A stretch of DNA of 42,026 bases from a virus (lineage: Duplodnaviria > Heunggongvirae > Uroviricota > Caudoviricetes), in IMG/VR virus record IMGVR_UViG_2734482779_000005, positions 1-42,026 of that record. One strand, written 5' to 3'. Positions 9,452 to 34,577 of the stretch are shown in pieces. A program made the position numbers and the translations under genes. The first letter of the stretch is position 1, and each line of letters starts with the position of its first letter. The notes beneath the pieces are model-generated. The model did no database searches, had not been told where the DNA came from, and saw only the letters and a program-made list of their open reading frames with translations.

Positions 9452-10284
9452 ACAGTTTAACGGCAAATAACCGTTTGTCGCAACAGCTGGTGGTCAGCGA
9501 CGCTGACCACCTGTTGTTACGGCATGAATGCAGATTACCAAATCACCTGGCTGTAAGTAACCACAGAGAACTTTACCTGACTGTGGGGGGCGAGTTGTGC
9601 AGGAACTTAACCGCTGGTTTCGTGACGGAAGAGGACTTTATGTTCATGTTATTCGTTGGGAGCCAGAAACACAGCGCGTTATCTATCTTCGCAAAGACTA
9701 CCCGCATGAGTGCTTTAGTCCTTTGTGGAAATTCAGGCGTGATTTTGTTGAGTGTGAAGGACCACCAGCACATTGATTCTGCCATTCCGGGACGTTACAC
9801 TGTTCAGGCACCTTATAAAGCGGGTGCCGGGATTGGCGTCCTGGAAATGTTATCGGCGATATATGACGCGCCAGCGTCTTTTTTATCGTCTGCGTCTGTG
9901 CACACCCAAATTATGGTGGGCTGGACGGGGGCACCGAAAGGTGCGCCGGTTTCCGATAACGCCGGTTACGCCAACCCCGTTCAGTTCACCACCAGCGAAA
10001 TTGGCGTTTCCGGTGGTGAAGGTAATTCACTGTTATCGGAGGCTGCCATCATGGCTACTGTCCCAGCCCTCACTCGTCTGAATGATGAAGACTTACATAA
10101 ACTCAGTTATGTAACAACTGCACTACGTGCTCTGCGCAAGGTAACTCTTTCGGATCCGCAGGCGCATCAGGTTTTGGTAGAAACCCTTCTTAACTTGCAG
10201 GCTGAACGTATTCGTCTGGCGGATAAGGCTAATTTTCATATTCACCGTCTCCTGAATATCAGCGGAGGGCATCGTCATGCTTAA
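9448..10284 (+). CDS. Hypothetical ORF (278 aa), coding status uncertain
   Basis: Longest ORF in the interval, but the N-terminal half is low-complexity and an alternative frame (GTG 9597 to tga 9776) gives a more protein-like 59-aa product; see findings. Confidence 0.25.
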   Translation: MNSLTANNRLSQQLVVSDADHLLLRHECRLPNHLAVSNHRELYLTVGGELCRNLTAGFVTEEDFMFMLFVGSQKHSALSIFAKTTRMSALVLCGNSGVILLSVKDHQHIDSAIPGRYTVQAPYKAGAGIGVLEMLSAIYDAPASFLSSASVHTQIMVGWTGAPKGAPVSDNAGYANPVQFTTSEIGVSGGEGNSLLSEAAIMATVPALTRLNDEDLHKLSYVTTALRALRKVTLSDPQAHQVLVETLLNLQAERIRLADKANFHIHRLLNISGGHRHA

Positions 10285-26265: not shown

Positions 26266-26436
26266 ATGTTTGTCAAACCTGTTAAAGGGCGGTCAGTTCC
26301 TGACCCTGCCCGCGGCGACCTTTTGCCCGCCGAAGGGCGAAATGTTGACGAGAACAACTACTGGCTGCGCCGTGAAGCAGCGGGTGATATCCGGCGCGTG
26401 AATAAAAAGGTGAATACCGATGACGATAAGCTTTAA
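26266..26436 (+). CDS. Small hypothetical protein (56 aa) preceding the sheath gene
   Basis: Hand-translated MFVKPVKGRSVPDPARGDLLPAEGRNVDENNYWLRREAAGDIRRVNKKVNTDDDKL with GAGGAG SD; overlaps the sheath start by 17 nt. Confidence 0.3.
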   Translation: MFVKPVKGRSVPDPARGDLLPAEGRNVDENNYWLRREAAGDIRRVNKKVNTDDDKL

Positions 26437-27916
26437 CACCATTCCGTCGAATACGCTGGTTCCGTTGTTTTATGCGGAAATGGATAACCAGGCGGCGAAT
26501 ACTGCACAGGACAGCGGAGCATCGCTGCTGATTGGTCATGCCAATAACGGTGCAGAGATTGTTGCCAACAGTCTGGTACTGATGCCGTCGGCAGACTATG
26601 CACGCCAGATTTGTGGTGCGGGAAGTCAGCTGGCGCGTATGGTCGAGGCTTATCGCCAGACTGACCCGTTTGGCGAGCTGTATGTGATTGCCGTTCCTGA
26701 ATCCACAGGCGCGGCGGCAACGGTTACGCTGACGGTGACCGGGGAAGCAACCGAAAGCGGCACGGTGAATGTCTATGTGGGACGTACCCGCGTGCAGGCT
26801 TCGGTGACCAACGGCGATAACGTCACGACGATTGCCAGCAGTATCAAAGATGCCATCAATGCCGTTCCGACTCTGCCGTTTACAGCTTCATCTTCGGCTG
26901 GTGTTGTCACGCTGACCGCGCGTCATAAGGGGCTTTGCGGGAATGAAATTCCTGTCAGCCTCAATTACTACGGCTTCGGTGGGGGCGAAGTGCTGCCAGC
27001 GGGCGTACAGATTGCCGTGGCGACGGGGACCGCCGGAACGGGCGCTCCGGTTCTCACCGGCGCGGTGGCTGCAATGGCGGATGAGCCGTTTGATTATATC
27101 GGTCTGCCGTTCAACGACACGGCCTCCGTTAACACGCTGGTGACCGAGATGAACGATACCAGCGGTCGCTGGAGCTATGCGCGTCAGCTGTATGGTCATG
27201 TGTATACGGCAAAGACCGGCACACTGTCAGAACTGGTGAACGCAGGTGACCAGTTTAACCAGCAGCACATCACCCTGGCGGGGTACGAAAAAGAGACCCA
27301 GACGCCTGCCGACGAGCTGGCGGCAAGCCGTACCGCCCGCGCAGCGGTGTTTATCCGCAACGATCCGGCACGTCCCACGCAGACCGGTGAGCTGGCGGGT
27401 ATGCTGCCTGCGCCGAAGGGGAAACGGTTCACGATGACCGAGCAGCAGACCCTGCTGTCTCATGGCGTGGCAACGGCGTATGTCGAAAGCGGGGTGCTGC
27501 GCATTCAGCGTGATGTCACCACGTACAGGAAAAATGCTTACGGGGTTGCGGATAACAGCTACCTCGACAGCGAGACGCTGCATACCAGTGCGTATGTACT
27601 GCGCAAACTGAAATCCGTCATTACCAGTAAGTACGGGCGTCACAAGCTTGCCAGCGACGGTACCCGCTTTGGTCCCGGTCAGGCGATTGTCACCCCGGCG
27701 GTAATCAAAGGGGAACTGCTGGCAACCTACCGTCAGCTTGAGCGTGCGGGGATCGTGGAAAACTACGAACTGTTTAAGCAGTACCTGGTTGTGGAGCGTG
27801 ATGCCAGCGATCCGAACCGCCTGAACACGCTGTTCCCGCCTGACTATGTTAACCAGTTGCGTGTTTTTGCCGTGGTTAACCAGTTCCGTCTTCAGTATTC
27901 AGAGGAGTCTGCATAA
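26420..27916 (+). CDS. Tail sheath protein (contractile tail, Mu gpL-like)
   Basis: 498 aa; followed by tube, chaperone with frameshift, and tape-measure genes in canonical myovirus order. Confidence 0.75.
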   Translation: MTISFNTIPSNTLVPLFYAEMDNQAANTAQDSGASLLIGHANNGAEIVANSLVLMPSADYARQICGAGSQLARMVEAYRQTDPFGELYVIAVPESTGAAATVTLTVTGEATESGTVNVYVGRTRVQASVTNGDNVTTIASSIKDAINAVPTLPFTASSSAGVVTLTARHKGLCGNEIPVSLNYYGFGGGEVLPAGVQIAVATGTAGTGAPVLTGAVAAMADEPFDYIGLPFNDTASVNTLVTEMNDTSGRWSYARQLYGHVYTAKTGTLSELVNAGDQFNQQHITLAGYEKETQTPADELAASRTARAAVFIRNDPARPTQTGELAGMLPAPKGKRFTMTEQQTLLSHGVATAYVESGVLRIQRDVTTYRKNAYGVADNSYLDSETLHTSAYVLRKLKSVITSKYGRHKLASDGTRFGPGQAIVTPAVIKGELLATYRQLERAGIVENYELFKQYLVVERDASDPNRLNTLFPPDYVNQLRVFAVVNQFRLQYSEESA

Positions 27917-28272
27917 TGGCCCGTATCGGGGGAACCTGTTATTTCAAAATTGACGGTCAGCAGCTATCGCTGACCGGCGGCATTGAGGTGCCCATGAACA
28001 GGACGGTCAATGATGACATCATCGGCCTGGACGGTTCAGTGGACCGCAAGGAAACTCACCGTGCGCCTTATGTCAAAGGGACTTTCAAGGTGCCGAAGAA
28101 TTTTCCGGTGAACAAAATCACCTCGTCTGATGAGATGACTATCACTGCCGAGCTGGCGAACGGTCAGGTCTATGTACTGTCGTCTGCCTGGCTGCACGGC
28201 GAAGCGAACCATAATGCCGAAGAAGGCACGGTTGATCTTGAGTTCCACGGTGAAGAAGGGGATTACCAGTAA
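27916..28272 (+). CDS. Tail tube protein (Mu gpM-like)
   Basis: 118 aa directly after the sheath gene. Confidence 0.7.
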   Translation: MARIGGTCYFKIDGQQLSLTGGIEVPMNRTVNDDIIGLDGSVDRKETHRAPYVKGTFKVPKNFPVNKITSSDEMTITAELANGQVYVLSSAWLHGEANHNAEEGTVDLEFHGEEGDYQ

Positions 28273-28541
28273 TGAAAGAGCTTGAGTTAAAGAAACCGAT
28301 TACTGCTCATGGCGAGACACTCTCCGTACTGGAGTTTGATGAGCCCACCGGGAAGGATGTCCGCGAGCTGGGGTATCCCTACCAGATGAATCAGGATGAG
28401 TCAGTCAGACTTCTGGCGCATGTGGTGTCGAAATACATTGTGCGGCTGGCGAAAGTGCCGCAAAGCTCTGTCGACCAGATGTCTCCGGCAGACCTGAATG
28501 CAGCGGCGTGGCTTGTGGCTGGTTTTTTCCTCCAGGCCTGA
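28272..28541 (+). CDS. Tail assembly chaperone (zero-frame product)
   Basis: 89 aa immediately upstream of the tape measure; contains slippery heptamer T TTT TTC at 28523-28529. Confidence 0.6.
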   Translation: MKELELKKPITAHGETLSVLEFDEPTGKDVRELGYPYQMNQDESVRLLAHVVSKYIVRLAKVPQSSVDQMSPADLNAAAWLVAGFFLQA

Positions 28542-28690
28542 CGGCTGAATACCTCACTGATCGCTTCTTTGACTGCGCCAGCTACTGGCGCATTAATCCT
28601 TTCGAATTGCTGAATATGCCGATCAGTGAAATTCCCTTACTGGTCAGTCAGGCAAACAGGATAGAGCAGGAGAAACGCACACATGGCTGA
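28508..28690 (+). CDS. Tail assembly chaperone -1 frameshift extension (G-T-like fusion C-terminus)
   Basis: -1 frame ORF beginning inside the slippery region and ending inside the tape-measure start; analogous to lambda G/GT. Confidence 0.55.
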   Translation: MACGWFFPPGLTAEYLTDRFFDCASYWRINPFELLNMPISEIPLLVSQANRIEQEKRTHG

Positions 28691-30515
28691 ATTTGAGCTT
28701 AAGGCGTTGATCACCGGTGTCGACAGGCTTTCTCCCGCGCTGTCGAAAATGCAAAAGAAAATCCGGGGATTTAAACGCCAGGCGGAAGAAGCGTCACAGG
28801 GTGGGCTGGCGCTTGGTGGCGGACTGGCAGCGGGTCTGACGCTTTCCCTGAAATCTTATGCCGATCAGGAAAACGCCGCCACCGGGCTGAAAGTCGCCAT
28901 GATGGATGCGAACGGCGAGGTTGGAAAGAGCTTTCAGGACATCAATAAACTGGCTATTGGCCTGGGTAACCAGCTACCCGGTACAACGGCTGATTTCCAG
29001 AACATGATGCAGATGCTGGTGCGTCAGGGGATCCCGGCAGAAAACATTCTGGGTGGTGTGGGTAAAGCGACAGCTTATCTTGCGGTACAACTGAAAAAAA
29101 CACCGGAAGCGGCTGCTGAGTTTGCTGCAAAGATGCAGGATGCTACCGGAACGGCGTCAGAAGACATGATGGGGCTGTTCGACACTATCCAGAAGGCGTT
29201 TTATCTGGGCGTTGACGATACCAACATGTTGTCCTTCTTCACTAAAACCAGTTCTGTTCTGAAGATGGTGAACAAGGATGGTCTTCAGGCTGCACAGAGC
29301 CTTGCCCCCATCAGCGTCATGATGGATCAGATGGGGATGAACGGGGAGTCGGCAGGTAATGCCCTGCGAAAAGTTATCCAGTCCGGATTAAGCGTTAAGA
29401 AAATCAGGGACGTTAATAAAGTTATGGCCCGCCAGAAACTCGGGGTACAGCTCGATTTTACTGACGGCAAAGGAAGTTTTGGCGGTCTTGATAACATGTT
29501 CAGGCAACTGGCAAAGCTGCGAAAACTGACCGACGTTAAGCGAACCGGTGTACTTAAGGCAATATTTGGTGATGATGCCGAAACCCTTCAGGTGGTCAAT
29601 GCACTAATCGATAAAGGAAAGGATGGCTACGATCAGATCCAGCAGAAGATGAATAAACAGGCCAGCCTGAATAAACGTGTTCAGGCACAGCTTGGTACGC
29701 TGTCCAACCTGTGGGAGGCAATGACAGGGACCGCAACTAACGGCCTTGCGGCTATTGGCGGCGCATTTTCTGGTGACGCTAAAAATATCACACAATGGCT
29801 GGGGGAGTTGGGGGAGAAATTCACGAAGTTTGCGGATGAAAATCCCCGGGTTATTCGCGGCGTCGTCGGGCTTGCTGCCGGTCTTGCGATTCTGAAACTG
29901 GGATTGATGGGCGTTGGCGGTGCCATCAGTATTGTCAGCAGGATTATGTCGATGACGCCGATTGGCATGATTGCGACGGCGATTGCTCTGGCTGCGGGAT
30001 TAATTATCACTAACTGGGATGTTGTCGGACCTTATTTCAAGAAGCTCTGGGAAACCATTGGTCCTTATTTTGAGGCAGGTTGGGAACTTCTGAAGAAGGT
30101 TTTTGCCTGGTCGCCGCTGGGGATGGTGATCAATAACTGGGGACCGGTTGTTAAGTGGTTTCAGGATATGTGGGACAAGCTGAAGCCAATTATTGAGTGG
30201 TTTACCGACAGTTCCGGTGACACGGTCGATGCCATTAACTCTGCGCAGTGGGGCGCGGGTGCTTATGATGCTTATGGGACGGGAATACCGGCGCGGGGAT
30301 ACACACCTTATCCGGCGGTGGATCCGGCTCAGTCAAACAACGCCTCCGATGCCACAGGCTCGAATCCCTTCATGATTAACAAAGCTTCTGTGCCAAAAGT
30401 TGATGGTGAGATCAAGGTCTCTTTTGTGAATTCGCCTCCGGGTATGCGGGTTATGGAAACGCGATCCAGCGGTTTTGATGTCAGCCATGATGTTGGCTAT
30501 ACGCGGTTCAGGTAG
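28683..30515 (+). CDS. Tail tape measure protein
   Basis: 610 aa, Ala/Gly/Met-rich helical protein with TM-like segments; sits after the frameshifted chaperone. Confidence 0.8.
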   Translation: MAEFELKALITGVDRLSPALSKMQKKIRGFKRQAEEASQGGLALGGGLAAGLTLSLKSYADQENAATGLKVAMMDANGEVGKSFQDINKLAIGLGNQLPGTTADFQNMMQMLVRQGIPAENILGGVGKATAYLAVQLKKTPEAAAEFAAKMQDATGTASEDMMGLFDTIQKAFYLGVDDTNMLSFFTKTSSVLKMVNKDGLQAAQSLAPISVMMDQMGMNGESAGNALRKVIQSGLSVKKIRDVNKVMARQKLGVQLDFTDGKGSFGGLDNMFRQLAKLRKLTDVKRTGVLKAIFGDDAETLQVVNALIDKGKDGYDQIQQKMNKQASLNKRVQAQLGTLSNLWEAMTGTATNGLAAIGGAFSGDAKNITQWLGELGEKFTKFADENPRVIRGVVGLAAGLAILKLGLMGVGGAISIVSRIMSMTPIGMIATAIALAAGLIITNWDVVGPYFKKLWETIGPYFEAGWELLKKVFAWSPLGMVINNWGPVVKWFQDMWDKLKPIIEWFTDSSGDTVDAINSAQWGAGAYDAYGTGIPARGYTPYPAVDPAQSNNASDATGSNPFMINKASVPKVDGEIKVSFVNSPPGMRVMETRSSGFDVSHDVGYTRFR

Positions 30516-30614
30516 TGTACAAAATGATTAATGTGTTTTTGTCTGGCATAATTTGGGTTTTCAGCTTTAAGTAGTTAATATAATCATTCCTTACAAATGA
30601 TTGAAGGGATGATT

Positions 30615-31109
30615 ATGCGTATCTTTGTTTTTTTTATATCTGCACTTTTATCTTTTAACTTGGCTGCGGAAGAGTGTAAGTTCAGCTTTAATGAGTCAGA
30701 ATTAATCTCTTCTATAGGTATTGCACCAGTTAAGCAAGAGATAATAAAGGATGAAGGAATAACTAAGCGGCAATATGAATTCAGAAGAGAATTATCTTCT
30801 GAAGAAATGCTTAGTGATGACGCTGATGAAAAATATGAGCCGCAGTTTTATATATCTGTTTATAATCCATCATGCCCACAAAAGGTTATTGTTTGGTTTT
30901 TCAAAGACAATAAAAACACAATGGATTTAAGTAATGAGGTCCTTGCTGGTAGAGCGTTCAAGTATTTAACTGGTGTTAATGAAAGTATTTTTGAAAATAA
31001 AATGAAAAAGTTTTTAAAGGTACAGTCATTTGAATCTTTTGATGAAAGGACAGATTCTAAATTTATAAAGAGTGGTAATATTTATTCCATTGATGTTCAA
31101 CTCAGATAG
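30615..31109 (+). CDS. AT-rich moron: secreted protein of unknown function (164 aa with signal peptide)
   Basis: Signal peptide MRIFVFFISALLSFNLAA|EE; AGGGA SD; perfect TATAAT at about 30577; appears markedly more AT-rich than the flanking tail genes. Confidence 0.55.
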   Translation: MRIFVFFISALLSFNLAAEECKFSFNESELISSIGIAPVKQEIIKDEGITKRQYEFRRELSSEEMLSDDADEKYEPQFYISVYNPSCPQKVIVWFFKDNKNTMDLSNEVLAGRAFKYLTGVNESIFENKMKKFLKVQSFESFDERTDSKFIKSGNIYSIDVQLR

Positions 31110-31199
31110 TAATTAAAAATATTAGGTTCCCGCCACATCTTCTGCGATGTAAATAACTGACAAAGCAGATTTGGCGGGTTTTTTGTATCCGGAGTTTAT

Positions 31200-34152: not shown

Positions 34153-34577
34153 TGGAACTGTGGCTGACGGTGAACGGTAAACGCACCTGCGCCAGCGCAC
34201 CGCTGGATCCGCTGACCCGCGCTGTGGTGATTTCCCTGTTTACCTGGCGGCGGGCGGAGCCTGATGACAACGCCGACGTCCCGATGGGATGGTGGGGGGA
34301 TACCTGGCCTGCGGTACAGAATGACCGTTACGGCTCCCGACTGTGGCTGCTTCAGCGCAGCAAACTGACCAATCAGCTGGTGCAGACGGTAAGGGGGTAT
34401 ATCCGCGAATGCCTGCAATGGATGATTGATGACGGCGTGGTGTCCCGTATTGATCTGGATATCCGCCGTACCGGGATTAATGAACTGGGTAACAGTATCA
34501 CTCTCTGGCGTCGTGACGGACCGGTAATGATTTCTTTTGATGATCTGTGGAGTGCGATAACGCATGGCGGACAGTGA
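34149..34577 (+). CDS. Baseplate protein, GP46/gpW-like
   Basis: 142 aa; positional. Confidence 0.55.
   Translation: MMELWLTVNGKRTCASAPLDPLTRAVVISLFTWRRAEPDDNADVPMGWWGDTWPAVQNDRYGSRLWLLQRSKLTNQLVQTVRGYIRECLQWMIDDGVVSRIDLDIRRTGINELGNSITLWRRDGPVMISFDDLWSAITHGGQ

Follow-up and report, generated by a model that had tools for sequence, protein, structure and literature searches.

A predicted P2-type -1 frameshift and tail assembly chaperone pair in the SfV-like tail module of a lambdoid prophage

The virus record IMGVR_UViG_2734482779_000005 (Caudoviricetes) was analysed over positions 1 to 42,026, and this whole stretch of 42,026 nucleotides (hereafter the window) carries an SfV-type contractile tail module in a lambdoid prophage, with positions 27900-28900 being 99.1% identical to orf11-14 of phage SfV. 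The genes follow in the order sheath, tube, chaperone, tape measure, DNA-circulation protein and baseplate hub, and two overlapping open reading frames (ORFs) lie between the tube and tape measure genes, which is the position of a G/GT-type pair. This class of frameshift pairs in tailed phages is reportedly the subject of work by Xu, Hendrix and Duda from 2004. Sequence comparison makes it very probable that a programmed -1 frameshift yields a G/GT-like pair of tail assembly chaperone products upstream of the tape measure gene. The features at the locus are as follows.

26420-27916: sheath gene (Pfam PF04984, PF17482 and PF17481)
27916-28272, plus strand: tail tube gene, 118 aa (Pfam PF10618 Tail_tube, E=3.3e-33; PHROG 185, tail tube)
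28272-28541, plus strand: zero-frame tail assembly chaperone ORF, 'G' or gpE-like, 89 aa, 9.9 kDa, with its stop TGA at 28539-28541
28523-28529, plus strand: slippery heptamer T_TTT_TTC in the X_XXY_YYZ register, zero-frame codons GGT TTT TTC (28521-28529)
28529-28690, plus strand: predicted -1 frame extension, 'T' or E'-like, 53 codons PPGLTAEY...EKRTHG (PHROG 32181, E=6.5e-41)
28574-28592, plus strand: 8-bp hairpin TGCGCCAG-cta-CTGGCGCA inside the -1 extension, 44 nt 3' of the heptamer
28683-30515, plus strand: tape measure gene, 610 aa (Pfam PF10145, E=9.8e-27; PHROG 28/17727, tape measure)

The canonical position of the chaperone pair is set by its upstream neighbour, the tail tube gene. 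The tape measure gene downstream is preceded by an AGGAG 10 nt upstream of its ATG at 28683. The chaperone ORF matches Pfam PF10109 ('Phage tail assembly chaperone proteins, E, or 41 or 14') with 60.3 bits against a cutoff of 25 (E=1.9e-16). Its zero-frame end reads ...GCT GGT TTT TTC CTC CAG GCC TGA (protein ...VAGFFLQA*), with three codons separating the heptamer from the stop. Reading the -1 frame from 28523 gives FFPPGLTAEY...EKRTHG (full peptide FFPPGLTAEYLTDRFFDCASYWRINPFELLNMPISEIPLLVSQANRIEQEKRTHG) with 55 sense codons up to the TGA at 28688-28690, which overlaps the tape measure ATG by 8 nt (ATGGCTGA), and the +1 frame is shut 2 codons past the zero-frame stop. An original prediction, made from the window alone, had placed the zero-frame stop at 28539-28541 and the heptamer at 28523-28529 and had described the -1 frame as open to 28690, across the tape measure start; all these coordinates agree with the sequence. 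Neither a promoter-like site nor a terminator-like site on the coding strand was found between the chaperone and tape measure genes. The predicted products are the 89-aa chaperone and a fusion of 139 aa (15.8 kDa), for which a junction peptide containing ...LVAGFFPPGLTAEY... is expected.

According to the proposed mechanism, most ribosomes would stay in the zero frame up to the TGA at 28539-28541 and release the 89-aa chaperone, and a minority would slip with tRNA-Phe bound to UUU (28524-28526) in the P site and to UUC (28527-28529) in the A site. The two tRNAs would move back by one base onto UUU UUU (28523-28528), nucleotide 28529 would be read twice, and translation would proceed with CCU CCA GGC... 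in the -1 frame to the TGA at 28688-28690, leading to a fusion of the first 86 chaperone residues with a 53-residue C-terminal extension. On the model of lambda G/GT and P2 E/E+E', the N-terminal part common to both products may coat the tape measure protein and the extension may recruit the tail tube subunit, with the slip frequency setting a fixed low ratio of long to short product. An AlphaFold model of the 139-aa fusion calculated from the single sequence was unusable (pLDDT 46.5), and a sequence search against solved structures gave no match.

The evidence carrying this assignment comes from 21 relatives, namely 20 loci from species-representative genomes with chaperone identities of 40-100% and phage SfIV, for whose chaperone an identity below 50% was reported. 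The 20 loci stem from Edwardsiella, Shigella, Buttiauxella, Citrobacter, Atlantibacter, Scandinavium, Kluyvera, Erwinia, Pantoea, Kosakonia, Enterobacter, uncultured proteobacteria and the betaproteobacterium Derxia gummosa. All 21 carry T_TTT_TTC or T_TTT_TTT in register, each time with a -1 frame open from there to about the tape measure start, and the comparative test suggested along with the original prediction, conservation of both frames, thus came out in its favour. The slip-site codons are GGT TTT TTY in the relatives and CGT TTT TTT in SfIV, reflecting six T followed by C in 18 of the 21 and seven T in L018, L019 and SfIV; the T-run slip site has been retained from Enterobacterales to a betaproteobacterium. 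As the zero-frame stop lies 16, 31, 34, 49 or 70 nt past the start of the heptamer depending on the relative, it is the heptamer that represents the fixed point. The nearest upstream -1 stops are found 15-21 nt before the heptamer, and in the group to which the window belongs the zero-frame stop follows 16 nt past its first base; if the site is homologous across the relatives, the shift would be confined to about 35 nt, within which the heptamer is the only conserved slippery motif.

The same comparison bears on whether the -1 ORF might be a gene of its own, translated separately from the GTG at 28508 as a protein of 60 aa. This GTG is indeed present in the window, in the -1 frame and 15 nt upstream of the heptamer, the record of vB_EcoM-689R6 annotates the -1 ORF separately as 'hypothetical protein', and PHROG 32181 and several database entries are stand-alone calls of it. 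However, inspection of the sequence upstream of GTG 28508 revealed nothing resembling a Shine-Dalgarno sequence, the open -1 frame of the relatives begins anywhere between 15 and 273 nt ahead of the heptamer, and in 12 of the 21 the -1 frame is devoid of ATG, GTG and TTG between its upstream stop and the 20th codon beyond the heptamer, yet the peptide is conserved. The downstream ORF is thus unable to start independently in these relatives, and we consider two separate genes highly improbable.

Selection on both frames is visible in a gap-free alignment of 11 sequences with 71-98% nucleotide identity. Variable sites at the three zero-frame codon positions number 35/21/75 in the chaperone body and 18/40/28 past its stop, a shift that moves the maximum to the third position of the -1 frame, and the substitutions over 28542-28687 show the periodicity expected if the -1 frame encodes protein. 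None of the 11 bases GGTTTTTTCCT varies in this alignment, with the adjoining upstream Ala codon occurring as GCT, GCC, GCG and GCA, and GGT TTT TTC are the only three consecutive degenerate codons of the chaperone gene with frozen wobble bases. Derxia retains GGT TTT, though GGT accounts for 11% of its Gly codons and TTT for 29% of its Phe codons. Retention of the heptamer by chance was estimated at ~8e-8, a rough value as it treats 8 deep lineages as independent although they are related. In the -1 peptide, A19, W22, P26, A44, R46 and I47 of the T part are invariant down to an identity of 31% in the betaproteobacterial relative. These patterns indicate that both the heptamer and the peptide of the -1 frame are under purifying selection. 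They also speak against the absence of any recoding, with the -1 frame as a non-coding spacer open by chance and the 89-aa protein as sole product. Such a view could draw on the roughly chance frequency of heptamers with long open -1 frames in this window and on the missing annotation of 28542-28682 in RefSeq and GenBank, but it would have to accommodate the -1 periodicity, a peptide conserved across such a distance and wobble bases kept invariant against codon bias; it is already contradicted by the comparative data and retains only a minimal probability.

The 139-aa fusion could also arise if RNA polymerase added one U at the T6 run (28523-28528), a minority of the mRNAs then encoding the long form, as the resulting protein would be identical to that of a -1 ribosomal slip and the slip site is a homopolymer of six T, or of seven in L018, L019 and SfIV; moreover, one near-identical prophage (L044) retains the T6 run in another phase. 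Productive slippage of bacterial RNA polymerase generally takes place at about 8-9 or more A or T, for which a T6 run is short, and the run has not been lengthened in the 18 relatives that keep T6 followed by C. The X_XXY_YYZ phase, kept in 21 of 21 relatives, matters to ribosomes and not to the polymerase, and the homologous site of P2 has been described as a translational -1 frameshift. Transcriptional slippage is therefore improbable, if somewhat less so than the two readings discussed before, and we infer that the ribosome slips rather than RNA polymerase.

Regarding the shiftiness of the motif, U_UU.U_UU.C and U_UU.U_UU.U count among the shift-prone motifs of E. coli, with UUUUUUC at least as shifty as UUUUUUG (PMC4066793). 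In E. coli reporters UUUUUUC led to 0.89% frameshifting with the IS911 stimulator and 7.6% with the IS3 pseudoknot, and UUUUUUG, the site of P2, led to 0.118% without a stimulator and 0.247% and 0.765% with these two elements, respectively (PMC4066793 Table S3). In some tailed phages the shift seems to be independent of a stimulatory signal (Atkins review, PMC5009743). As no nearby stimulatory RNA structure seems to be needed, the slip efficiency at the present site is probably low, between a fraction of a percent and a few percent.

A stimulatory structure had been proposed at about 28535-28580, and this part of the original prediction was not borne out by folding, covariation and Rfam searches. 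An Rfam scan of 28200-28800 returned nothing relevant, and the folding z-scores were -0.8 for 28530-28590, -1.5 for 28530-28620 and -0.2 for 28480-28600. Local folding 3' of the heptamer was average for the region (percentiles 0.73, 0.28 and 0.68 for 40, 60 and 90 nt), as it was in most relatives, and a small hairpin 5 nt downstream of the heptamer is not conserved. A 128-nt fold reached z=-2.7 by means of a long-range stem. For a different long-range stem from the alignment fold, GCCUGAC (28536-42)/GUCAGGC (28647-53), no compensatory changes were observed and substitutions break its pairs. With predicted pairings lacking covariation and local folding being average, a nearby stimulatory structure was rejected. 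In the GC-rich loci L018 and L019 (uncultured proteobacteria) and L023 (Derxia), a strong hairpin was found within a few bases of the heptamer, with the 40-nt folding energy in the lowest 8% (L018/L019) and 2% (L023) of their regions; such a hairpin is absent from the enterobacterial members, and some lineages may use a stimulator that is absent from this window.

The hairpin at 28574-28592 behaves differently from these candidates in that all 10 aligned relatives share an unchanged stem, four degenerate wobble bases (TGC, GCC, TAC and CGC) included, with the wobble base of the loop being variable. Outside the stem, and with the overlap zones excluded, the extension has just two invariant degenerate wobble positions. 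Two relatives with a chaperone identity of 55% retain the hairpin, with a Tyr-to-Phe change in its loop, and five more distant relatives that retain the heptamer have lost it. The hairpin is probably no classical stimulator. We regard it as unlikely, if conceivable, that it is a selected RNA element of this clade, acting either on the frameshift ratio over a long distance or on the translation or stability of the chaperone/tape measure message; if so, the locus would be more than a stimulator-free site of the P2 type.

The closest analogue of the pair is found in phage P2, for which GenBank annotates E and E+E' with a -1 shift. P2 gpE also matches PF10109 (47.8 bits), and the match of either protein stops at position 78 of the 79 in the profile, exactly at the slip site. 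This site reads ...VVGFL on G GTT TTT TG in P2 and ...VAGFF on G GTT TTT TC here, both being Gly-Phe T-run slips whose heptamers differ in the last base (G in P2, C here), and the products are of similar size, with 91 and 142 aa in P2 compared with 89 and 139 aa in the window. The overlap of E+E' with the tape measure gene T amounts to 8 nt, the same as here, and in both phages, P2 with its FETUD tail operon and the one studied here, the pair lies between the tube and tape measure genes of a contractile tail. A downstream hairpin is reported to be absent at the P2 slip site TTTTTTG (PMC3091744), and likewise no stimulatory hairpin was found downstream of the present heptamer. Nine of 10 further P2-like phages read FF across the site in the E' frame, and for the tenth, a Mannheimia phage, the annotation gives another slippery sequence. 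In contrast to these likenesses, the chaperone domains of P2 and of the window show no significant BLASTP similarity (E=0.56), and the remaining tail module is of the Mu/SfV type and not of the P2 type. In its predicted working the element thus resembles P2 E/E+E', set in a tail module of the Mu/SfV type. Given the P2 precedent (PMC3091744, PMC2628397), a frameshift in a phage with a contractile tail is expected and not notable; the original prediction had remarked that the pair is conserved despite such a tail.

The likeness to lambda, named in the original prediction, is more general. Lambda gpG/gpGT shifts by -1 at G_GGA_AAG, and as predicted for the window the products are nested with a common N-terminus, are encoded just upstream of the tape measure gene and result from a low-frequency slip. 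The roles proposed in lambda are binding of the tape measure protein by the G part and of the tube subunit by the T part (PMC5009743). A G/GT-like frameshift pair is thus supported by position, family and conservation, with P2 E/E+E' and not lambda as its nearest counterpart.

In gene content, the closest tail is that of Mu, with sheath L, tube M, DUF2635, a DNA-circulation protein and a gp44-like baseplate hub. Mu gp41 scores on PF10109 (E=2.5e-5), but it comprises 144 aa and belongs to PF23746, whereas the protein in the window matches PF10109 only. Mu is reported to use a -2 shift (PMC5009743, PMC2628397), and its extension lies in the +1/-2 frame; the extension of the window lies in the -1 frame, and its +1 frame closes after 2 codons. 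PF10109 thus offers a clean comparative example, with the extension frame being -1 here and in P2 and -2 in Mu. The Mu extension past the gp41 stop (L104, 3553-4131) contains a loosely similar motif (...GPEWALSLPLSRFFRHCQQAKTL; hhalign P=1.8e-3). Should the Mu extension and the present one be homologous, a single Pfam family would include a change of the frame in which the extension is encoded.

Several points weigh against a programmed frameshift of the P2 type and were considered together. In a chance test on the 57 largest non-overlapping ORFs of the window, with in-register X_XXY_YYZ heptamers being counted, 58 such heptamers were found and the -1 frame was open for at least 55 codons at 3.7% of the codon positions, leading to about 2 expected cases of a heptamer with an open -1 frame compared with 3 seen, which is not significant alone. 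As the window by itself does not exceed chance, the case rests on the position between tube and tape measure genes and on conservation in relatives. The frameshifting reported for UUUUUUC without a stimulator is only 0.12% in the E. coli reporter (PMC4066793), and no convincing stimulator is found near the heptamer. The extension gave no match to PF06528 (Phage_P2_GpE) even at E up to 10, compared with 76.3 bits for P2 E+E', and hhalign comparisons of the extension were weak, with P=6e-4 for P2 E' on its own and P=0.014 for an E' profile of 11 members; as the richer profile weakened the score, homology of the extension to E' is not established, and a distant homology is possible. Furthermore, comparison of 80 near-identical prophage contigs from IMG/VR at the slip site showed that GGTTTTTTCCT is retained in 77 and that the heptamer is degraded in three (L044, L075 and L081; positions ~2745-2760). 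L075 and L081 read GGG TTT TTC (G_TTT_TTC) and L044 reads GGG TTT TTT CTC, and in all three the sheath, tube, chaperone, -1 frame and tape measure are intact. The variants still hold a U_UUC or U_UUU A-site tetramer and may represent weaker shifting or decaying prophages; either the perfect heptamer is not strictly indispensable or these prophages are decaying. Finally, the evidence as a whole is comparative. With these points weighed against the conservation of slip site and peptide, we regard the event as a P2 E/E+E'-type -1 frameshift that is real, unannotated and unsurprising.

Two further heptamers of the window account for the remaining cases in the chance test, about the number expected by chance. 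In-register GGGGGGC at 9585 (plus strand) is followed by a -1 frame open for 63 codons, and in-register GGGAAAT at 34230 (minus strand) by one open for 58 codons; the minus-strand ORF may be no real gene.

With respect to annotation, no record joins both frames among SfV, SfI, SfII, SfIV, ST64B, phiP27, AH07 and EPP-1, and in a RefSeq E. coli genome that is 100% identical over the 561-nt query segment the interval is left unannotated. Related sequence is present in 1,085 of 5,426 complete E. coli genomes. When 1.84 billion representative proteins were searched with the extension, no natural in-frame fusion in a single ORF came up, only short separate ORF calls of 53-70 aa. Apparent full-length fusion hits (P0001-P0006) turned out to be singletons with several indel errors and not natural fusions, and hits to P0123, P0124 and P0126 in the representative library were repeat proteins and thus false positives. 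The family is not among the prophage candidate clusters of Sharma et al. 2014, and no description of this frameshift for SfV-like phages was found in the literature searched. The pair is therefore a new, or at least unannotated, member of a well-known class of phage frameshifts. Its main value lies in annotation, as the 139-aa long form is missing from the phage records examined (SfV, SfI, SfII, SfIV, ST64B and phiP27) and from the RefSeq annotation of E. coli, and no new question is opened by it, both the mechanism and the role in tail assembly having been established for lambda and P2 for two decades.

Downstream of the tape measure gene, the module of the window carries an AT-rich insert (30516-31199) between the tape measure and DNA-circulation genes, with a GC content of 0.30-0.33 compared with ~0.52 on both sides. 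SfV has no gene at this position. The insert encodes an ORF of 170 aa (30597-31109) with a hydrophobic N-terminus, which belongs to PHROG 8976 without known function and has no Pfam match, and the insert looks like a moron.

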